Of a DNA stretch of 64,000 nucleotides, positions 1,389 through 38,676 are shown one piece after another (position 1 is the first letter of the stretch; every line of letters begins with the position of its first letter). This DNA comes from a virus. The stretch spans positions 13,274 through 77,273 of IMG/VR virus record IMGVR_UViG_3300022871_000011; one strand, given 5' to 3'. The notes beneath the pieces were generated by a model. That model was not told where the DNA came from, ran no database searches, and was given only the letters and a program-made list of their open reading frames with translations. Position numbers and translations under genes: made by a program.

Positions 1389-1600
1389 AAGATGATGCAT
1401 ACACCAATGCACATATGATGCTGGATGAGCTGGTGAGTATTCGAAGGAAGCACACCATTATAAGAATAGCCCTGGAGCAGGCCTCATCTAAAGGTGATTC
1501 AATGCCTGTTCAGGGTTGGAACACGGAGGCCCTCATAACAGGGGCCATGGGCAGGGGTGAGCCTTGTCTACCAGCTGGGCTCCTAGATGAGCTTACTTAA
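1364..1600 (+). CDS. hypothetical protein
   Basis: ORF with AGGAG RBS. Confidence 0.55.
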   Translation: MEAYPDPLKDDAYTNAHMMLDELVSIRRKHTIIRIALEQASSKGDSMPVQGWNTEALITGAMGRGEPCLPAGLLDELT

Positions 1601-1908
1601 AGCTCGCGCTTGTCAGGGTCTTCGTTCTTTTTAAGACGTTGTTCCTTGGCCTCGCCGACGCGCTCAATAATGTCCTTAACGATGTCCATCATGACTTTGG
1701 CATCTTTTACCTTTTCTAGCTTGGAAGCTATTACAACAAGCACCTCTGCTCGTTCGATGGCTTCCTCGATAGAAAGGATCTTGGTTTCGACTGGGTTACC
1801 AATCTCTTTAATACCGTCTTTACGTTTGCCTGTGTCATAGACCTCCAGGACAACATTACCGTTCTTGGCTGTTACGCCCTTAATGTTCGACATGTGTTGG
1901 GATTCCAT
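1597..1908 (-). CDS. hypothetical protein downstream of terminase
   Basis: GGAGG RBS immediately after the terminase stop. Confidence 0.7.
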   Translation of the reverse strand: MESQHMSNIKGVTAKNGNVVLEVYDTGKRKDGIKEIGNPVETKILSIEEAIERAEVLVVIASKLEKVKDAKVMMDIVKDIIERVGEAKEQRLKKNEDPDKREL

Positions 1909-1920
1909 AATATCCTCCGG

Positions 1921-4900
1921 TTACCAAACTACTTTCTCTGGATCAGTCGGGGCCGCTAAGGCCAGCTGCTGTTCCGTTATTGTAAACTTATCCTTGACAG
2001 TGTTCATGTCAGGGTACGATTGACGTGTGTGCCATATGGCCGAACACGCATAATTTAAAGCATGGGCAAAGTCATCACTCTTTTTGGGAGCTTTGCCTAT
2101 AAGATACATAATACCGCCTCTGGGTAATTCCCGGGGCATCTCTACAAGGTTAAGTAGATCATCCAGTACTATCTTGGATTCGTCATCATAGAACGGCAGT
2201 GAGATCTTATGTGCCCTTAACATAGCGCACATAACAGCCAAGCTCCGTGCTTTATCGATGCTGTAAGAGAACCGGGTACCGTTACCTGTAGGTGGGTTAT
2301 AGGTTATAACATCTTTGTTGGTGCTGCTAACGTATGTGTAAGGTATGATCTGATGATCGGGCAAACCTGCCTGTCTCATCAAGGATTCCCTAACATAACC
2401 TGCGCCACCATAATCATGTGCCATATAGACACACTGAAACTTGCGGAACTGATCCATGATATACATGGACTCTTCTTCAGGGCTCATACCCATGGGGAGC
2501 CTCTCAGAGTATAAGTTATCTACTACATCTGTACCGTTACGGAAACCCACGACGGCTAATGCAGTGTAGCTCTCTGATAAGTCTCCGCCACCACTCCAGT
2601 CAACACCCATAACATAACCGGAATACTGGTTGCGCAACTTAATTGTAGCAGCCATATCATTCTTATGTTTACCGGCCGCTGAGATTAAGTCGGCTTGTGA
2701 TAATAGTTTAACGTTTTCATCGCAAGGCACCCCCAGTACCTCGTTATAGAATTTAGCCTTAGAGTAGGACCCGGGACCTTCCATTTTACCGAGTAGGGCC
2801 TGCCACTTAGCTTTAATCCCATAATGAAGAGGATGTGTTACCTGGCAGAAATGATAACCAGCATGCGTGGCAGCCAAGTCAGGCCGTGCATGTACATAGT
2901 AACCCCGGCGCCCATCTAAGGTGCCCCCGCATTTGGCACATATAATAGTTTTCTTACCCAGCATCTTAATCAGGTCCTGCTCAATCGATGCTATATTCTT
3001 TTTACGACAGTGACTACAAGGGATACACCACTCCGCCATACTACTGTCGTTCCACACCACTGCAAGTGTTCCATCCGACGTCTTAGGCGTACCGGTATAT
3101 TGCTGGAAACCGAAGTACCTATTTGCACTTGTTGTTTCGAATAAAATTGGGAGGAAATCGTAGTCAATGTCTTGGCAATTAAGGCTTTGCACATTATTTG
3201 CAAGAATATAATTATGCGTTCCGACCACCTCTATATCGTAAACAGGCTGCACAGCTGTAACCTCTATTTTAGATATTCTGCTAAGGGTTACGCCTGCTCC
3301 AGCTTCCTTGCACGGTAACGCCGCTGGTTGTCCCTCAACTTTAACTTCTGACACACCTCGGCCTGGCAGACGGTGCTTGTCTTCTTGTAGAGGGGTTCCC
3401 CGCAGTACCTGCAATGGCCTGTTGGCCCTTTCGCCAGTATTTTGCGCTTGTGCCGGGCATTCGTTATAAGGCGCTGTCTTTCTTTCTCTGCAGGGTCGTT
3501 GGCAAGCCTCTCTTTCCTGCGTTGGTCCGACCGGGCATTCTGTTCTTTTACTTTGTCGGGGTTGTTCTTGCGCCACTCTTTTGTGTGCACTGCCTCTGCT
3601 TTGTGGTCCCTGCGTGCGTTGGCCTTGTCCAGCCGATCTCTGTAGCGTCCCTGGTCCTTCTTTAATTTTGCATAATACCGTTTGCGCTCCGACTGTAGAC
3701 TTGCTTCGTATGCCGGGTCTCCCTTTAGCGATGTCCGCTTGTCGCGTTTGCGTTCGTTTACAAGGTCCCTGTTGCGTTCCAGGTAGGCTGCTGCATGCTT
3801 TCTTCCCATTGCCCTGCTGTACACTAGGTCCTTGTAGTAACAGCGCCTGGCTATTATCCTGGATTGTTCCGGGTTGGCACGGCGCCACTCCGCGGACTTC
3901 TCCATTATGTATTCTTTGTTTTCTTCGTAATATTCGTGTTTGACTATGTGATCGTACTCCTCTTTGCATGCACCCTCGCATACCCATGCTCCCTTGGTTA
4001 GCTCTGCCCCGCACATTAAGCAACGGTGTTCTATACGGTTTATCTTGTAAGCCATCGGTGCAGGCATGTAAGGTGCTATCAACGGTATCAGGGTTATTGT
4101 GCCCTTCGCAGTTATGTATAGCAGAGGGTACGTGAAGACTTCCCCGTCCCTCGTTTTGTTCACCATATACACTTTGCTCTCCACACCATACTTGGCCATT
4201 AGCCATGTAGATAGCAGGTCCACTTCCTCCGGGCTGAACCCGTGAGTCGATATGCTCACAGTCCTGCGTCCGCTGTCCAGACATCCGTCGTCCCCTATCC
4301 ACCACGCTATCCCCTCGGGGGTCAGCTGTGAGAGCCACTCCGTGTTCACTAGCTTGTGATGCCCGTCCGGGCATGTTAGGGTGAAGATATAGTGAAACAC
4401 TGAGAGGGCCTGCGTCCTCCAGACACTCGACCATTCTCCGTAACCCCCGTTCTTGATCTTGTAAGGTGCTCTGGTGGCGTACTCTGCTAACAGGGCGTAC
4501 TTCTCCAGGTTGTATTGGTGCTGGCACCACCCGTGATTTGAGCGGTAACATACAGTCTGCTTGGCTGCGCTGCTTACCTGCATTGAGCCATCCCCTAGCA
4601 TCGTACCCAGTAACAGCTGCTTCTGTGATGCCGTCAAAGTCTCCGGTTTGTTTTGCATACTCATAATTTATTACCTCCGATAATCGTACAGGGCCTATAG
4701 ATGTGGGGAATGAATGATCACCCGTACACTCTATTGTTTCACCTGTCTCTAGTGTAACTTTAAAACACAGCCGCTCCCCGTGATAGGAAGCATCCTTTGC
4801 TGCGATACTATTTAACACTGTACCATCATTGTTGAAAGAATGCAAGTACTCACCTGCTTTAACTTCACAGACCTTTTTGGATGAAAAAGTCACTCCGTCA

Positions 4901-5427
4901 TAACTCGTTGATATTAAAGTATTTGCGCTGAGGCTCTCGTCAATTGCGACACATGAGATTGAGGATATGCCCCTCACACGATCGGGATTTAGGTAGCAAT
5001 ATTCTAGGAATATCATAGACCCAGAATGGAACTCTTTCGTGTAGAATTTACCCACCTCCTGGTCCGACATCATATCGCTCTTTATGAGAGAGTGTTTAAG
5101 AAGAGGCCTCAGGATGGTAGCATTATAGCGGGCCAACTGGTCAGCACGGGGCTCGATTATAAGTGTATGGAAGCCTTTGTAGTAGTGGGCCCTTAAAATA
5201 GCCTGTGCACTTAGGCTCAGACTTTTTCCTACTTGCCGTGAGCAGCAATATACAACAGATCTAGGTTGTTCAAATTCGAAGAATGGTGCCATCTGATAAT
5301 GGAGGTCAGTTGACATATGTTCTTCACCTATTTTGAACACAGGTAAGAGAGGTGCAAAGGATGTAACCCACCCCTCATCTACAGCGCGGAAGTATTCCGC
5401 AATGAATTGATTCGTATTAAGACCCAA
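1921..5427 (-). CDS. terL: terminase large subunit (GpA-like), intein-containing precursor; ~582 aa after splicing
   Basis: Walker A CSRQVGKS; Walker B AIDE/CQD split by the intein; TGTPKT motif; CxxC...CxxC; C-terminal nuclease GVDW...DDFAHALNY; TTG start with AGGAGG. Confidence 0.92.
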   Translation of the reverse strand: MGLNTNQFIAEYFRAVDEGWVTSFAPLLPVFKIGEEHMSTDLHYQMAPFFEFEQPRSVVYCCSRQVGKSLSLSAQAILRAHYYKGFHTLIIEPRADQLARYNATILRPLLKHSLIKSDMMSDQEVGKFYTKEFHSGSMIFLEYCYLNPDRVRGISSISCVAIDESLSANTLISTSYDGVTFSSKKVCEVKAGEYLHSFNNDGTVLNSIAAKDASYHGERLCFKVTLETGETIECTGDHSFPTSIGPVRLSEVINYEYAKQTGDFDGITEAAVTGYDARGWLNAGKQRSQADCMLPLKSRVVPAPIQPGEVRPVSRVRHQSTLQDQERGLRRMVECLEDAGPLSVSLYLHPNMPGRASQASEHGVALTADPRGDSVVDRGRRMSGQRTQDCEHIDSRVQPGGSGPAIYMANGQVWCGEQSVYGEQNEGRGSLHVPSAIHNCEGHNNPDTVDSTLHACTDGLQDKPYRTPLLNVRGRANQGSMGMRGCMQRGVRSHSQTRILRRKQRIHNGEVRGVAPCQPGTIQDNSQALLLQGPSVQQGNGKKACSSLPGTQQGPCKRTQTRQADIAKGRPGIRSKSTVGAQTVLCKIKEGPGTLQRSAGQGQRTQGPQSRGSAHKRVAQEQPRQSKRTECPVGPTQEREACQRPCRERKTAPYNECPAQAQNTGERANRPLQVLRGTPLQEDKHRLPGRGVSEVKVEGQPAALPCKEAGAGVTLSRISKIEVTAVQPVYDIEVVGTHNYILANNVQSLNCQDIDYDFLPILFETTSANRYFGFQQYTGTPKTSDGTLAVVWNDSSMAEWCIPCSHCRKKNIASIEQDLIKMLGKKTIICAKCGGTLDGRRGYYVHARPDLAATHAGYHFCQVTHPLHYGIKAKWQALLGKMEGPGSYSKAKFYNEVLGVPCDENVKLLSQADLISAAGKHKNDMAATIKLRNQYSGYVMGVDWSGGGDLSESYTALAVVGFRNGTDVVDNLYSERLPMGMSPEEESMYIMDQFRKFQCVYMAHDYGGAGYVRESLMRQAGLPDHQIIPYTYVSSTNKDVITYNPPTGNGTRFSYSIDKARSLAVMCAMLRAHKISLPFYDDESKIVLDDLLNLVEMPRELPRGGIMYLIGKAPKKSDDFAHALNYACSAIWHTRQSYPDMNTVKDKFTITEQQLALAAPTDPEKVVW
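3178..4935 (-). mobile_element. intein (586 codons) in the terminase Walker B motif
   Basis: Starts SLSANTLI after DE; block B CTGDHSF; blocks F/G VYDIEVVGTHNYILANNVQSLN followed by Cys; removal restores DECQD. Confidence 0.9.
3288..4664 (-). CDS. LAGLIDADG homing endonuclease nested in the +1 frame of the intein
   Basis: LLGTMLGDG and IAWWIGDDG motifs; own SD GGAGG at 4674-4678; C-terminal CxxC and basic helical region. Confidence 0.88.
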   Translation of the reverse strand: MSMQNKPETLTASQKQLLLGTMLGDGSMQVSSAAKQTVCYRSNHGWCQHQYNLEKYALLAEYATRAPYKIKNGGYGEWSSVWRTQALSVFHYIFTLTCPDGHHKLVNTEWLSQLTPEGIAWWIGDDGCLDSGRRTVSISTHGFSPEEVDLLSTWLMAKYGVESKVYMVNKTRDGEVFTYPLLYITAKGTITLIPLIAPYMPAPMAYKINRIEHRCLMCGAELTKGAWVCEGACKEEYDHIVKHEYYEENKEYIMEKSAEWRRANPEQSRIIARRCYYKDLVYSRAMGRKHAAAYLERNRDLVNERKRDKRTSLKGDPAYEASLQSERKRYYAKLKKDQGRYRDRLDKANARRDHKAEAVHTKEWRKNNPDKVKEQNARSDQRRKERLANDPAEKERQRLITNARHKRKILAKGPTGHCRYCGEPLYKKTSTVCQAEVCQKLKLRDNQRRYRARKLEQA

Positions 5428-5431
5428 ACGT

Positions 5432-6141
5432 TCCTCCTAAGTGCTTCGACAGCACACAAACTTATTATTTAATTTATTCGCATAAAGATGTTTTGTAAAG
5501 TATATTAGCATAAAATACAGGAATTGCAAATGCCGAGTCAGAGCTCAAGAGAAGCACTCAAGCGTAAAAAGCTTGATTTTAATGAATTGAATAATGATTC
5601 TGCCGGTCCTTATAAGACCCGCGGACTCATTTCCCATGACCGACCGTTTGAGGAGACGGTAGCACTACGACCTATTGACACAGTCAAGGATCGTGGGGCG
5701 ACTTTACCTCTGGACGATGGCGAGTGGAACGATTCATCTTCCAGCTCATGACACCCTCTTCAACATACACGGAGGTGTAAGTGTGAAATCGAAGAAGGAT
5801 TATGAAGGCTGAAAAGTATCTCTCAGAGGGCGGAGGTTTAGCCCTTATGGTTATTAGTGGCTTATTGCTGCTATTCTTGTTATGGGTAAGCCCTATAGCT
5901 GCAAGTTGTGCTGGCTTCGCCACCATGATATTAATACTACTCCCCCGCCTCTCCGCTAACCCGGAAACAGGTTCAGGTGTAGGTATTATAGCAGGGCTAC
6001 CGGTTATCGTAGGGTTATGCGTACACCCGGTGGTGTTCTGTGTAGCTGTATTGGCAACTTGGTGGTTAATCGTAGGACTTTCTCAGAGCCTAACCGACTC
6101 AGATTCCCCGTAACAAACACGCTGTCGAGCACCGTGGAGGA
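5432..6141 (-). ncRNA. candidate ~700-nt structured RNA / leader upstream of terL
   Basis: Nested long-range helices whose G-U pairs work only on the minus strand (ends pair; CUGAGUCGG/CUGACUCGG; GGAGAGGCGGGGG/CCUCCGCCCUCU). Confidence 0.55.
5471..5499 (-). promoter_or_regulatory. putative terL promoter TTTACA-N17-TAAATT, overlapping an AATAAATTAAA motif
   Basis: Spacing and position ~45 nt upstream of the terL start. Confidence 0.45.
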
Positions 6142-6170
6142 TTTCTTTAATTTATTAAACCGGAGATAGA

Positions 6171-6383
6171 ATGACTAATTTATTAATTTTAAGTTCGAAA
6201 GATGAGGCTGACACTGTCAGTTCTAAGGTAATGGCTAACCATGACATCGTCATACAGGCCATCGAAGACACAGGGATGTATACAATCCTGAAGAGCAGAG
6301 GCAAGACCAGGCGAGCAAAGATGAACTGGCCTGATGTATGTAAACTGCGAGTAAAGCTTGAGACAGAAATTGCAGAGGCCTAA
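6171..6383 (+). CDS. hypothetical protein
   Basis: GGAG RBS; ORF track. Confidence 0.55.
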   Translation: MTNLLILSSKDEADTVSSKVMANHDIVIQAIEDTGMYTILKSRGKTRRAKMNWPDVCKLRVKLETEIAEA

Positions 6384-6484
6384 AAACCTGCATCTCCTTC
6401 TCATACTCTTCCTCTTAACCTAATATTACAAAAGAATTGAATATTTATTCTAAATATCCCCTTCTTCTGTAGAGATTGAAACAG

Positions 6485-6511
6485 ACGCACCAGCTTTTCG
6501 GCTGGTGCGTT
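6485..6511. terminator. GC-rich hairpin, possible terminator
   Basis: GACGCACCAGC-TTTTCG-GCTGGTGCGTT. Confidence 0.45.
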
Positions 6512-6546
6512 GAGCTACACATTTGTATTACTGAAAAGGAGGTTTA

Positions 6547-6831
6547 ATGTCTATACAAAAGTATAACGCTACACTCAACAGAGTATCAGCATCGTTTGCA
6601 AAAATATCAAAGCTTATTGACAACCACGTTGATAAGTACACCATGCACAAGAAATGGGATTGCTGGTTTAGACTCCATGATGCATTCAGGAAGAAGTATC
6701 ATATCAGAGCCTACAGCAGATCAAAACGCGATAACATGGATATCATGTTCGCAATAGCCTTAGCCCCTGAAGGCAACGGTAAAGGTATGTTAAATGAACT
6801 CGAACAGCTCGCAACGGAGATGTTCACCTAA
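6547..6831 (+). CDS. hypothetical protein
   Basis: AGGAGG RBS. Confidence 0.65.
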   Translation: MSIQKYNATLNRVSASFAKISKLIDNHVDKYTMHKKWDCWFRLHDAFRKKYHIRAYSRSKRDNMDIMFAIALAPEGNGKGMLNELEQLATEMFT

Positions 6832-17716: not shown

Positions 17717-19145
17717 GAATACGTTACTACTGATGTGTCTGGCCCATCATGATAAGCTTCTCCAGGAGGCTATCACTAAGACTGGGACACACCCTCTGTT
17801 TGATAATCTTGTGGATCCTTGCTCTACTTTCATATGGACAGTATTGAGAGACTGTAGGATGGACACCAACAGTTACCCAACTAGACCATTGATAGAACTT
17901 GAAGTTAATGGCAGGCTTGACATGATGTTAGGCTTCGAAGACAGCTTTAAGGAGCAGGTACGAGATACGGTCAACAACATATATTCTATAGGCAAGGAGA
18001 ATACATCCGTGGAAATCGGACGTACGTTCCTTGAAGCAGCACTGCAGGAATTATTGACAAGTGACTGGGCGGATAAGATCCACCAGTTGGGTACCATCGA
18101 CGAGATGCGTAAGTACGTCAATGAAGTTACAGCCGATATGGCATCTCTGGCATGCGACGGACAGGCTTTGTCTAAGCCGTTGCAGAACCCGGAAGCCTAT
18201 CTAGTTAGGAAAGTACGCTCTATCTTCGGAGTGCGTGTACTGGACTTAGCGACAGGTGGAGGCCTAGCACCGGGAGAAGTCCTGGGATTGCTTGGACCCA
18301 CAGGTGGTGGTAAGACTGTGTTAGCTGTAGGAATGTTATGCGAGCGAGCCTTAAGAGGTAAGCACGTAATGTTGGCATCGTATGAGCAGAAGACCGAAGG
18401 TGATGTCATGGAAAGGATTTGTACTTACATGACTAAAGAGAATATTGATAACTTCAGAGACAAAGCCTATGCGGAACTAGACCAGGACCTAAAGGATAAG
18501 GTTGAGGAACAGAAGTCCAAGTATGGCCAGTTCGTAACAGTTCTAGACCTGGCTCAGGGTAACCGAGGTACAGGCGGAGCAGAAGAAGTGACACAATATA
18601 TCGAAGAACAGATAGAGGCTGGAGAGAAACCTACGTTGGTCATTATTGACTGGCTTGGGTCCATGATCCAGAGATATCTCGCCGAGAACGGCCTAGCAAG
18701 TGATCAATACAGACACGTTGGACATCAGTTCATTGATAAATTAAGCGGCCACGCCCGCCAACACGGCTACAGTGTGGTTATAAATCATCAGCTGCGTACG
18801 GATGCAGCCAGAAGCAGTGCTTATAGCAAACCTAAGGTTACTGATGCTTTCGAGTTCAGGGCCTTCTCATTCTTTATGGATGGGTGCTTATGCCTCGGTA
18901 CTCTGGATACAGATACTAAGGTAGGGTGGCTGTGTATGGATAAGTTCCGTCGTGGTGCAACTAATGACTTAATGGTTAGGCTGGACGGAGAGCATGTGCG
19001 CTTCGAACCCGCTACAGGATATGTAACAGACCACAGAGGTAAGTTCATTGAGGCAGAGGCAGCACCGCCTGATGTTGATGAGGAAATACAGAATAGTAAA
19101 ACAACAATAAATGAGGAGTTGCAGCAAGCATATAAAACAACATGA
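17703..19145 (+). CDS. DnaB-like replicative helicase
   Basis: GPTGGGKT, VIIDW, HQL and KFR motifs; next to primase. Confidence 0.85.
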   Translation: MTRHENTLLLMCLAHHDKLLQEAITKTGTHPLFDNLVDPCSTFIWTVLRDCRMDTNSYPTRPLIELEVNGRLDMMLGFEDSFKEQVRDTVNNIYSIGKENTSVEIGRTFLEAALQELLTSDWADKIHQLGTIDEMRKYVNEVTADMASLACDGQALSKPLQNPEAYLVRKVRSIFGVRVLDLATGGGLAPGEVLGLLGPTGGGKTVLAVGMLCERALRGKHVMLASYEQKTEGDVMERICTYMTKENIDNFRDKAYAELDQDLKDKVEEQKSKYGQFVTVLDLAQGNRGTGGAEEVTQYIEEQIEAGEKPTLVIIDWLGSMIQRYLAENGLASDQYRHVGHQFIDKLSGHARQHGYSVVINHQLRTDAARSSAYSKPKVTDAFEFRAFSFFMDGCLCLGTLDTDTKVGWLCMDKFRRGATNDLMVRLDGEHVRFEPATGYVTDHRGKFIEAEAAPPDVDEEIQNSKTTINEELQQAYKTT

Positions 19146-20248
19146 GAAATGTGCAACTATACAATGCGTTAGTTCGCGTCTTCAAAGAAGTAAGAATCGC
19201 GAACGAGGACGAAGCAGCAGTGTTCAGAGCCCCGAGGCTTTCAGCAGTGCAGAATCGTTTGAAGAACAAGTATAAGGATCGTAAAGACCTTATGCCTGAA
19301 CGTGTCTTTGGTGGCGAACAATACCAAGTATGCTGCCCTTATTGTGGTGATAACAGGTATAGGCTATATATAAGTCATGCCTGGGATCGTCATATGAAAG
19401 ATGAGGATGGTAAGATGATCTATGCCGGCAAGAGAGCTATGTGTCATAATGAGCAGTGTCTGGATAACTTGGATAACTTCCGTAATTTGGATGCCAAGCT
19501 ACTACAGAACACTAACTCACAAGACTATGTTCCCTTGGCCTGCTCTACTAATGTAGAAGCATTCAGGCATAGAACGGTACAGCTACCACCGGTGACACCT
19601 TTAAATGACCCGAGCGTCCCAGAGGACATTCAGGCATACGTAACAAATAGAGGCTACGACTTAGATGAGTTGACTAATGGATGGGGAGTAGGTGTCGGTG
19701 ACATCTGGTTCTATCCTAAGCCTTCATTAATATTTCCTATTGTACAGAATGGCGTGCGTAAATGTTGGCAGGCTAGGTACACAGGAGAAGACTTTAAAGC
19801 TTTGGGTAAACCAAAGTACTATTGGCCTACAGGCGTCAAGAAGTCCTGGTTACTCTACAACATGGATATGGCTAAGCTGTATCCGGGTGTAGTACTGACC
19901 GAGGGGGTCCTAGACGCGATCAAAATTGGCCCTGTGGGGACGTGCATGTTCGGAAAAATTCCGTCGGCTCACCAAGAGCAGCTATTAGCTACGCACTGGA
20001 AAAACAGTACGTTAGTATGGATTCCGGATGAAGATGATCCGCAAAGTATTAAGACTGCGGAGGAATATACAGAGAAGTGGAACAGAAAAGGACTCTTCAG
20101 GGAAGGTGCACACGTCGTACGTCTTCCTAGCGGAGACCCGGGTGACCACTCTAGGAGGGATTTGTGGAATTTGATTGTGGACAAAGCGCCATCACTGTCC
20201 AGGTTCGCGGACGGACGTACCCAGTCAGAATCTGGAATGGTAGGGTAG
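19142..20248 (+). CDS. DNA primase
   Basis: CPYC..CHN zinc finger; KYY; TEGVLDA TOPRIM motif; DxD. Confidence 0.88.
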   Translation: MRNVQLYNALVRVFKEVRIANEDEAAVFRAPRLSAVQNRLKNKYKDRKDLMPERVFGGEQYQVCCPYCGDNRYRLYISHAWDRHMKDEDGKMIYAGKRAMCHNEQCLDNLDNFRNLDAKLLQNTNSQDYVPLACSTNVEAFRHRTVQLPPVTPLNDPSVPEDIQAYVTNRGYDLDELTNGWGVGVGDIWFYPKPSLIFPIVQNGVRKCWQARYTGEDFKALGKPKYYWPTGVKKSWLLYNMDMAKLYPGVVLTEGVLDAIKIGPVGTCMFGKIPSAHQEQLLATHWKNSTLVWIPDEDDPQSIKTAEEYTEKWNRKGLFREGAHVVRLPSGDPGDHSRRDLWNLIVDKAPSLSRFADGRTQSESGMVG

Positions 20249-36410: not shown

Positions 36411-37788
36411 AACAGTAATGACAGCTGAAGAGAAGCTGCACAAAGCTAAGATTAAGCTGCAGGAACTACATCCATTCTTTGCATATTTAATTATGCATAT
36501 GGGTGCTACCGTTGATGAAGACTGCCCAACGATGGGTGTCGACAAAAAGGGTAACCTGTGGTACAATCCGGCGTATGTAGAATCTTTATCAGATTCCCTA
36601 TTAAGAAGTTGTTTAGCACATGAGATCTCTCATGTTATCCTTGCTCATCTGGCTCGCTATCATAAAGATTGGCAGCCTGACATTGGTAACATTGCAGCAG
36701 ATATCGTAGCTAATGACTTGCTTGATACAGAGGGCTTTGAATTGGATTCCAATTGGATTGTCCCGCGTAACCATGAATATGCCTTCCAGGGTAAGAAAGG
36801 TGCCGTCGTAATTGATGACATCGATAACAAGTCCATGGAAGAGATCTATGGTATCCTGGAAGCTAACGTCGATATGAAACCTCAGCCTAAATGTGGTACA
36901 TGCAACGGAACAGGTCAGGTATCTCAGGATCCCGGAGACTCCGATGGCGAGGGTGATGGAGACGGAGACGGACAGGGTCAAGGTAACAAGCCTTGCCCAC
37001 AATGTAATGGCTCAGGTAACAGTGCCCAAGGTCAAGTACCTGGTATGAAAGGTAAATCCCAGGACCAGCATAGGTTCGGAGAAGATAAGGATGAACAGTC
37101 AGACTCATTGGATAAAGATAGTGAACTACCTGATGAGTGGAAGTTCAAAATTGCTGAAGCTGCTGCGTTCGCGAAGCAACGTGGTCGCCTATCTGGTAAT
37201 CTGAGTGGCATGGTCGGTGAAATGATCGAATCAAAGGTTGATTGGCGCTCACAGCTACTGAAGTACATAAGTGCTATGCTGCCATATGATTTTACCTGGT
37301 CCAGGCCTTCTCGTAAGTCGGCTTCACTTGGTATATATCTGCCTGCGGTTCTGAAGGAGTACCTGGAAGTCGTTGTACATATCGACACATCCGGATCTAT
37401 CTGTGGTGAGACTCTTAAGGAGTTCCTAGGAGAGGTCAAGGGTATTCTGACACAGTTCGAAGCAGTTAGGATGACATTGATCATCTGTGACTGTGAGATC
37501 CACCAGGTCTATGACCTGACACCGGACAATGTACCTGAACTCGAAGAGATGCCTATAGGAGGCCGTGGCGGTACAGCTCACAGGCCTGTCGTAGATTGGA
37601 TTAATGAAAACAAACAAACAGCACGTATCTTTATATCCCTTACGGATGGTTACAGTGACATCGAAAGTTGTTACGATGACCTCCCATTTGGCTGCGACCG
37701 TCTTATCTTATTAGATAGAGACAGCGGTGACATGGAAGCACGTATGGAGCCTTATGGAGAGGTGATCTGTTTAGGAGATCAGAGCTAA
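36403..37788 (+). CDS. DUF2201-like metallopeptidase / VWA-domain protein
   Basis: HEISH; NIAAD; MIDAS DTSGS; GRGGT; LTDGY; partner of the upstream AAA ATPase. Confidence 0.88.
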   Translation: MPRTVMTAEEKLHKAKIKLQELHPFFAYLIMHMGATVDEDCPTMGVDKKGNLWYNPAYVESLSDSLLRSCLAHEISHVILAHLARYHKDWQPDIGNIAADIVANDLLDTEGFELDSNWIVPRNHEYAFQGKKGAVVIDDIDNKSMEEIYGILEANVDMKPQPKCGTCNGTGQVSQDPGDSDGEGDGDGDGQGQGNKPCPQCNGSGNSAQGQVPGMKGKSQDQHRFGEDKDEQSDSLDKDSELPDEWKFKIAEAAAFAKQRGRLSGNLSGMVGEMIESKVDWRSQLLKYISAMLPYDFTWSRPSRKSASLGIYLPAVLKEYLEVVVHIDTSGSICGETLKEFLGEVKGILTQFEAVRMTLIICDCEIHQVYDLTPDNVPELEEMPIGGRGGTAHRPVVDWINENKQTARIFISLTDGYSDIESCYDDLPFGCDRLILLDRDSGDMEARMEPYGEVICLGDQS

Positions 37789-37789
37789 G

Positions 37790-38116
37790 TTGACCACGGA
37801 ACCCAAAGTTCCAGTTGAAGTGGTCGGAGAGCACGAACCCGAAGGAGTCCAGGTGGCGTATTACCGTCACCCGGATGACTTCGAGGTTTTCTTCGGCGAG
37901 GAAAAAGACACAGAAGATTTATACTGTGTGGTAATTATACCTTCTAAGAATAGGAGGATATATCAAGGCAAGAAGGCTACTTACGGCTTCTATAAGTCTA
38001 TGCAGACGATAGAGAAGATGATAGCAGTGCAACCATTAGTAGGGGACAAAGTAGACCGGCTTAGAGTATTTGAATTTGATAAGAAGCTGGCTGAGTCCGA
38101 ACCCGGAGGTGAATAA
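37790..38116 (+). CDS. hypothetical protein
   Basis: ORF track. Confidence 0.6.
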   Translation: MTTEPKVPVEVVGEHEPEGVQVAYYRHPDDFEVFFGEEKDTEDLYCVVIIPSKNRRIYQGKKATYGFYKSMQTIEKMIAVQPLVGDKVDRLRVFEFDKKLAESEPGGE

Positions 38117-38676
38117 TGGGGTGTGACATCCATATTTTTATAGAAAGAGAGGTAGGGGACACATGGATACCCTTACGTAAGTATGATGCGTTCTATGCAA
38201 AGCATCCAGAGTGGGGATATGAGATATTCTCATTGGATGGGTGGTATAGCGGTCGCAATTATGAGCTTTTCGGGATATTAGCCGCTGTAAGGCGTGAACC
38301 CGAGAACATAATAGATGTCCCAAGAGGGTTACCTGCTGATTGCTCGGAGGGGGTAAAGGAAAGGAGCGATGAATGGGGCACTGATGCCCATAGTCACTCA
38401 CACTTTACACTGGCAGAGCTGGTAGCGTTCGATTGGACTAGCAATAAGATTCAAATGGAGGGAGTAGTAAGCTCTAAAGCTGCTAAAGCCTATAAGAATA
38501 AAGGTATACCGCCGACGAGGTGGTCTGCTTGGTCGGCTGACGTAAACGATGAGGAGCGGCTTGAGTGGGAGATAACCGCCGAGTCTTATTGCGCTGAGTT
38601 TATGAGTTTAATAGAGGATTTAAAAACACTGGGTAACCCAGATAAAGTTCGAATCGTGTTTTGGTTCGATAATTAG
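38116..38676 (+). CDS. conserved phage protein (MGCDIH...RNY.LF..LA.VR...VFWFDN)
   Basis: Recognisable family of unknown function. Confidence 0.8.
   Translation: MGCDIHIFIEREVGDTWIPLRKYDAFYAKHPEWGYEIFSLDGWYSGRNYELFGILAAVRREPENIIDVPRGLPADCSEGVKERSDEWGTDAHSHSHFTLAELVAFDWTSNKIQMEGVVSSKAAKAYKNKGIPPTRWSAWSADVNDEERLEWEITAESYCAEFMSLIEDLKTLGNPDKVRIVFWFDN

Follow-up and report, generated by a model that had tools for sequence, protein, structure and literature searches.

An inverted repeat that brackets a two-gene cassette upstream of a phage terminase gene, and its possible fold-back onto the terL ribosome-binding site

Upstream of terL, the large terminase gene of an uncultured phage, an interrupted inverted repeat of about 22 bp (5432-5456 and 6118-6141, arms 661 nt apart) brackets a cassette of two small genes, here called orfA and orfB, and one of its arms takes in the terL Shine-Dalgarno sequence (SD). 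The stretch analysed, referred to as the window, comprises 64,000 nt of the 77,273-bp IMG/VR virus record IMGVR_UViG_3300022871_000011, a record estimated to be 41% complete, and the interval in question covers the 710 nt immediately upstream of terL (5432-6141). This interval is a back-to-back region of two putative promoters, recognized by consensus matches, together with a two-gene plus-strand cassette that stands head to head with terL. A long-range helix recurs at the same two positions, with different sequence, in a metagenomic relative, and we consider the inverted repeat to be quite probably a selected feature. As to its function, we tentatively read the repeat, by analogy, as an RNA fold-back of the type described for T4 gene e, which may gate the translation of terL.

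In the minimum free energy (MFE) structure of the minus strand, positions 6141-6118 pair with 5456-5432 through 6+6+7 Watson-Crick or G-U pairs, giving a duplex of -33.8 to -34.3 kcal/mol that includes the terL SD (GGAGGA, 5432-5437; terL itself starts with TTG at 5427). A preliminary description of this DNA, made from its letters and predicted reading frames, had proposed exactly this pairing, and the outer helix closes the region in MFE and centroid folds alike, on either strand. The nested pairings proposed in the same description are also found in the minus-strand MFE structure: an inner helix joins 6102-6080 to 5533-5553 (-27.6 kcal/mol on the minus strand versus -18.2 on the plus strand), and a GGCGGGGG/CCUCCGCC helix joins 5949-5942 to 5829-5836, with both of its arms inside the orfB coding sequence. 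Between the outer and inner pairings lies a middle helix of 8 bp (6112-6105 with 5516-5523), and the left arm also holds a local hairpin of 5 bp (5441-5455). Three related ideas were dropped: masking of the orfA start by the inner helix in the normal plus-strand mRNA, as the helix is absent from the partition function; a short trans-acting anti-SD small RNA starting at 6141, given its weak local hairpin and short U-run; and the arm as a dispersed regulatory motif, as the window has no third copy.

The strength of the repeat was compared with several backgrounds. Of 3000 random 25-nt segments taken from this genome, each with its partner sought within 1 kb upstream, 2 had a duplex as strong as the outer one, a rate at which a few equally strong pairs are still expected per 64 kb; of 300 shuffled targets, none reached it. 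When the energy of the best distal partner was computed for the 25-nt leaders of 34 window genes, terL was the single outlier (-29.8; the next leader had -26.1 and most lay between -10 and -20). The composite affinity of one flank for the other, defined as the cofold energy minus the separate fold energies, was -27.6 kcal/mol on the minus strand, compared with -6.2 +/- 3.4 in 1500 controls of the same geometry (minimum -22.2), none of which reached the observed value; on the plus strand it was -27.7 kcal/mol. Moreover, local alignment of the two intergenic flanks returned an inverted match with p = 0.006. Overall folding energy was dropped as evidence of structure. The MFE z-scores of the 710-nt interval (-4.5 on the minus and -5.3 on the plus strand) fall within the range of nine 710-nt control windows from the same phage (+1.2 to -6.5) and are therefore uninformative about structure. 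On the plus strand the control windows 19101-19810 (about -6.5) and 37516-38225 (about -5.8) exceeded the interval, in estimates that are noisy, with 10 shuffles only.

Relatives of the locus are scarce. No relative was found among 50,697 deposited phage records (blastn and tblastn), in IMG/VR searched with the terL C-extein, an orfA alignment, a terL N-terminal alignment and a degenerate terL motif, or in GTDB genome contigs searched with orfA. A scan of JGI metagenomes with the orfA alignment identified three loci, L002, L003 and L004, of which L002 alone is a syntenic relative in which the repeat can be compared. This contig of 1475 bp has 64% GC compared with 46% in the window, and shows the same layout, with terL leftward and orfA and orfB rightward; the terL N-termini align with 65% identity and their start positions match. 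The L002 terL leader (467-490) finds its best long-range partner at 1142-1164, a segment about 665 nt away that begins 3 nt after the orfB stop codon. This pairing was reached by 2 of 300 shuffled targets, and by 1 of 1000 when the target was limited to the spacer after orfB. The flank alignment again yielded an inverted match (p = 0.018), which combined with the p-value of the window by Fisher's method gives about 0.001, and for the net flank affinity none of 400 plus-strand shuffles came up to the observed value, with p = 0.02 on the minus strand. The terminal helix is present in the MFE and centroid folds of both strands of L002. The minus-strand order is common to the window and L002: right arm, about 660 nt antisense to orfB and orfA, a sigma-70-like match, left arm, SD and terL.

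The helix in L002 takes up the same two positions as the repeat of the window, although the arm sequences of the two genomes are unrelated. That complementarity is kept in the same places, with wholly different arms but flanking proteins that still share 65-68% identity, points to base-pairing more than to a protein-DNA code. Conservation is confined to the outermost helix, and no counterpart of the inner helices of the window was found in L002. The two further loci, L003 and L004, carry an orfA-like gene and a membrane-protein gene as a pair, in a co-directional context without terL, and show no flank complementarity (p = 0.43 and 0.72 in L003). In L003 a strong intrinsic terminator follows orfB (3402-3445, z -4.5), and the gene pair is flanked by a 19-nt direct repeat (2742-2760 and 3488-3506; 15 of 19 positions identical, p about 0.09); both features are found in L004 as well. 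There are hints that the pair of orfA and membrane-protein gene moves as a moron-like cassette.

Inside the repeat, orfA and orfB are coding sequences on the plus strand. The orfA product, a small soluble protein, has a basic N-terminus, a RPIDTVKDRGATLPL core and a poly-Ser tail, and its seven homologues (P0004-P0010, 73-74 aa) show 68-85% identity, with the blocks KLDFNE and DTV.DRGAT invariant. Between orfA and its L002 copy, 48 of 73 residues are identical, 31 of them encoded with a synonymous codon change, and the differences at the three codon positions number 22, 20 and 44. The orfB product has a homologue, P0002, with 56% identity over 97 aa, and membrane proteins are encoded at the orfB position after orfA in both L002 and L003. 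Codon-usage log-odds of 0.16 (orfA) and 0.18 (orfB) are in line with those of terL (0.15) and neighbouring genes (about 0.2), the remaining five frames over each gene score negative, and each gene is preceded by its own AGGA-type SD. Neither protein matched a family in Pfam or PHROGs, and a search of the ESM Atlas with orfA gave no lead (best score 0.88). The interval 5432-6141 is very probably coding DNA and not the gene of a non-coding RNA (ncRNA). The orfA family is marked by the block RPxDTVKDRGATLPL, the basic block KRKKLDFNE and a stretch of 5-7 serines at the C-terminus; furthermore, a gene for a small multi-pass membrane protein follows orfA wherever the neighbouring DNA is visible.

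How the repeat could act on terL depends on where minus-strand transcription begins. A transcript that comes in from upstream and crosses orfB and orfA in antisense would carry both arms, and the two arms in one molecule would close a loop of about 690 nt and bury the terL ribosome-binding site. The putative terL promoter lies between the arms, with a predicted start about 8 nt before the left arm, so that its transcript would lack the anti-SD arm and be translatable; on this proposal, terminase would be made from its own promoter only. Partition-function calculations agree with such a switch: RNAs with a start at 6141 or 6300 have the SD paired with the anti-SD at a probability close to 1.0, and for an RNA whose start is at about 5464 the pairing probability of the central SD bases is 0.12-0.59. 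The scheme taken as a whole, that is, a very long-range terL gate with the anti-SD some 690 nt upstream, translation only of RNA from the terL-proximal promoter, and antisense transcription of the cassette coupled to terminase silencing, is one we put forward with considerable reserve.

The promoters in this scheme are matches to a sigma-70 consensus, which may not be the promoter type of the host. In L002, a match TTGAAA-16-TATATT (10/12) occupies the place equivalent to the terL promoter and is the only such match in the contig. In the window, the motif AATAAATTAAA occurs on the minus strand in exactly two copies, one directly upstream of the right arm and one upstream of the terL leader (5468-5478), as the preliminary description had noted, and no other exact copy exists in the 64 kb; the second copy overlaps the terL promoter match. 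Read as a promoter, the first copy gives TAGTCA-17-TAAATT, which reaches 8/12 by eye and is below the threshold of the scan, and the consensus scan returned a further minus-strand promoter-like match, GTGTCA-17-TAAAAT, at 6214-6186. As a general phage promoter motif AATAAATTAAA was dropped, since it has two exact copies only and shows no regular placement ahead of genes. On the plus strand, a direct repeat TT[A/C]TTTAATTTATT follows both arms (5465-5478 and 6143-6156; 13 of 14 positions identical, p = 0.002 for the two flanks). This repeat may represent a U-tract or an element of the -10 or UP type, and neither it nor AATAAATTAAA is conserved in L002.

Several observations weigh against a translational gate on terL. 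In L002 the helix ends 6 nt short of the SD, on its upstream side, and GGAGGAG stays unpaired, so that SD occlusion itself is not conserved, and the only extension that would cover the SD in L002 is weak and competes with a local terminator hairpin. The earlier proposal of a leader that gates terminase translation has partial support, in that the SD pairs with the anti-SD in silico and a repeat recurs in L002, where it does not reach the SD. Energetically, the plus-strand helix equals or surpasses that of the minus strand, with -21.5 on the plus and -16.0 on the minus strand in L002. Upstream of the right arm, the minus-strand promoter matches of the window are sub-threshold or weak, and no convincing minus-strand match was found at that place in L002. 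An untranslated antisense leader of 690 nt would lend itself to Rho termination, and read-through may therefore rarely reach terL. To our knowledge, no example of promoter-dependent SD masking spans about 690 nt, the T4 structures being local hairpins of tens of nt compared with arms about 660 nt apart here. Finally, conservation is judged on one syntenic relative.

The stability of the helix on the plus strand leads to another explanation, which we regard as unlikely: the repeat would form a long-range double-stranded stem in read-through RNA, most plausibly of the plus strand, and serve as an RNase III site or insulator, or as a split terminator-like stem. Its effect would then be to separate the cassette from the RNA that runs antisense through the terL island, and not to hide the SD. 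Plus-strand folding of the stem is at least as favourable as minus-strand folding in both the window and L002, and on the plus strand the right arm of each leads straight into a U-rich stretch. With 15-19 bp and internal loops, as predicted in folds of both strands, the stem resembles known RNase III sites. Furthermore, no local terminator was found after orfB in the window, whereas L003 has its strong one there and L002 has a GC-rich hairpin followed by a U run, which the consensus scan did not pick up. The setting of terL is also relevant here. Nearly all window genes lie on the plus strand, and the minus-strand island (1597-5427) consists of two genes, terL and a gene of 103 aa (1597-1908). 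No terminator-like site was found between the upstream plus-strand genes and this island, including the convergence at 1597-1600, which makes convergent and antisense transcription across terL likely. Under this explanation coverage of the SD need not be conserved. However, the left arm precedes the predicted orfA promoters, so that the normal orfA-orfB mRNA would lack one arm, and a stem of this kind does not explain why an arm in the window includes a perfect 6-nt complement of the terL SD.

It is comparably unlikely that the repeat has no function and represents a chance match or a decaying rearrangement scar, picked out of 64 kb because one arm contains an SD. The 2/3000 rate, which leaves room for a few 25-nt long-range pairs of equal strength per 64 kb when both strands are counted, is consistent with this, and the GC-rich L002 holds many stronger long-range duplexes (-37 to -45), with its right arm pairing better with the orfA coding sequence. 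Nor are the inner helices and the AATAAATTAAA repeat conserved in L002, and the fold z-score is unexceptional. Against this, the window and L002, whose arms are unrelated in sequence, both have them precisely in the short intergenic flanks on either side of the cassette (flank alignments, p = 0.006 and 0.018), the composite affinity was reached by 0 of 1500 controls, and terL stands alone among the 34 leaders.

Somewhat less probable again is a repeat that acts as DNA, whether as two inverted sites for one protein (operator looping around the divergent promoters), as the ends of an invertible promoter segment, or as the boundaries of a moron-like cassette. The repeat is strand-symmetric, and the left arm, which spans about +8 to +32 of the transcript predicted for terL, takes up a classical operator position with a GTGCT-N5-AGCAC dyad. 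The enclosed segment carries both predicted promoters; if it inverted, orfA-orfB would join terL in one operon, ahead of it, and the terL promoter would face orfC; in addition, the orfA-orfB pair is found in a different genomic context in L003 and L004. These points are set against the wholly different arm sequences of the window and L002, in which orfA and terL are 65-68% identical, and against the lack of a third arm copy in the window. The 77-kb record, 41% complete, encodes no resolvase (PF00239) and no tyrosine recombinase (PF00589). No target-site duplication was seen, the flanks AAACGT/TCCTCC and GGAGGA/TTTCTT sharing none, there is no transposase, and L003 is without the inverted repeat. 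Judged as an inverton, the locus shows inverted repeats that flank a promoter-bearing segment, the promoters being consensus matches; judged as an insertion sequence (IS) or miniature inverted-repeat transposable element, it has the inverted repeat but neither target-site duplication nor transposase, and orfA and orfB belong to no family that was matched.

The preliminary description had gone further and proposed that the interval is a structured minus-strand RNA of about 700 nt, either a large ncRNA or a packaging-associated RNA. The minus-strand MFE z-score of -4.5 and the nested long-range helices with their minus-strand G-U pairs speak for such an RNA, yet we hold it to be very improbable: the interior consists of two conserved plus-strand protein genes, the plus strand folds better, controls reach similar z-scores, and the internal helices are not conserved in L002. 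A cmscan of 4800-6800 on both strands against the 4227 families of Rfam 15 (E <= 10) returned five noise matches of 11-18 bits, compared with gathering scores of 43-100, with nothing below E = 2 and no large or packaging RNA family among them. Conserved orfA and orfB, unconserved inner helices and the lack of an Rfam family together leave a large ncRNA or packaging RNA unsupported. What would have told against that proposal on its own terms, conserved plus-strand reading frames without conserved helices, is largely what was found, with the outermost helix alone recurring in L002. The description had also taken the G-U mismatches as a sign of minus-strand RNA pairing. Minus-strand G-U pairs are indeed present in the window, but the L002 helix is better on the plus strand, and G-U asymmetry was dropped as a strand indicator because it points in opposite directions in the two genomes.

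The features of the interval and its surroundings are listed in Table 1.

Table 1 Coordinates of features in and around the interval upstream of terL (window positions).
Feature	Coordinates	Strand	Basis or remark
terL, large terminase	1921..5427	-	PHROG 675, E 1.8e-41; Pfam Intein_splicing, LAGLIDADG_2
Left arm; minus strand reads UGUGCUGUCG-A-AGCAC-uua-GGAGGA	5432..5456		starts the terL 5' leader, includes terL SD 5432-5437
Predicted sigma-70-like promoter TTTACA-17-TAAATT for terL, between the arms	5471..5499	-	consensus scan, 9/12
Predicted sigma-70-like promoter TTCGCA-18-TATATT for orfA-orfB, back to back with terL promoter	5477..5506	+	consensus scan
3' partners (minus strand) of middle and inner long-range helices	5516..5553		overlaps orfA SD, start codon and codons 2-8
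orfA, 73-aa conserved hypothetical protein	5530..5751	+	homologues, codon usage, L002 comparison
orfB, 103-aa multi-pass membrane protein	5802..6113	+	homologue P0002, synteny, codon score 0.18
5' partners (minus strand) of middle and inner long-range helices	6080..6112		overlaps last 11 codons and stop of orfB
Right arm (anti-SD); minus strand reads UCCUCC-acg-GUGCU-CGACAGCGUG	6118..6141		begins 5 nt after orfB stop
AATAAATTAAA copy 1, directly upstream (minus strand) of right arm	6146..6156	-	motif search
orfC, 70 aa, next small plus-strand gene, outside the inverted repeat	6171..6383	+	codon score 0.20

With regard to the wider context of terL, the gene and its 103-aa neighbour form the sole minus-strand island over many kb, and the 3' ends of the latter (1597-1908) and of the plus-strand gene 1364-1600 overlap by 4 nt (1597-1600). 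The terL frame is open over 1168 codons and runs through an intein, inserted directly after the Walker B motif VAIDE. A complete LAGLIDADG endonuclease open reading frame of 458 aa (3288-4664; Pfam LAGLIDADG_2, E 1.9e-21) lies on the same strand in a different frame, and underlies the low-complexity middle of the terL intein.

If the repeat does gate terL by folding back, promoter-dependent masking of a ribosome-binding site would work across a whole gene cassette, and a lone gene that runs against the flow of transcription would be protected from mistimed expression by RNA structure; this would also offer a handle on the timing of packaging in an uncultured phage lineage. If it does not, the locus illustrates that ordinary coding DNA can give rise to nested helices, G-U asymmetry and a good MFE z-score; the interior helices and the z-score lost their force as signals when set beside control windows and a relative.

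Known systems resemble the locus to different degrees. It falls in the size range of GOLLD, ROOL, OLE, HEARO and phi29-type packaging RNAs, of which GOLLD and ROOL also occur in phages; it differs in having no Rfam match, an interior that codes for protein on the other strand, and internal helices that are not conserved. Invertible promoter segments are known from fimS, from the Hin, Gin and Cin segments and from the invertons of gut bacteria. As in these, a segment of a few hundred bp with (here predicted) promoters lies between inverted repeats some 20-26 bp long, but the 77 kb contain no recombinase and the arms are not conserved between relatives. Processing stems cut by RNase III bracket the 16S and 23S units of rRNA operons, and further sites are known in phages T7 and lambda. 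Here too an inverted repeat flanks a whole unit, and the stem expected in a transcript across that unit has about 15-20 bp and internal loops; however, the unit consists of two protein genes and their predicted promoters, one arm lies outside the normal mRNA, and the stem is a predicted one.

Closer to the proposed fold-back on terL are IS10 and IS50, known for fold-back inhibition of their transposase: read-through transcripts begun outside the element have additional 5' sequence that pairs with the transposase ribosome-binding site, and transcripts from the transposase's own promoter do not have it. The same division between read-through and own-promoter transcripts is predicted here, with the difference that the pairing in IS10 and IS50 is short-range, within the IS end, and that the phage locus has neither a transposase nor the hallmarks of a mobile element. 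The nearest parallel is found in the phage T4 genes e (lysozyme), soc, 49 and I-TevI, where long transcripts sequester the SD or AUG and transcripts from internal promoters are translated (PMC3014915). The phage locus departs from these in the two antisense protein genes within its loop, in promoters that are consensus matches, and in the absence of SD coverage in L002. It resembles them in that an upstream sequence is predicted to pair with the SD and would render long transcripts translationally silent, in that a promoter-like site is situated within the structure, between the 5' arm and the gene, whose transcripts would lack the inhibitory arm, and in that the target is a gene of late function. 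If the reading of the repeat as a fold-back on terL is correct, the principle of T4 gene e would extend from local hairpins to a loop that encloses a divergent cassette.

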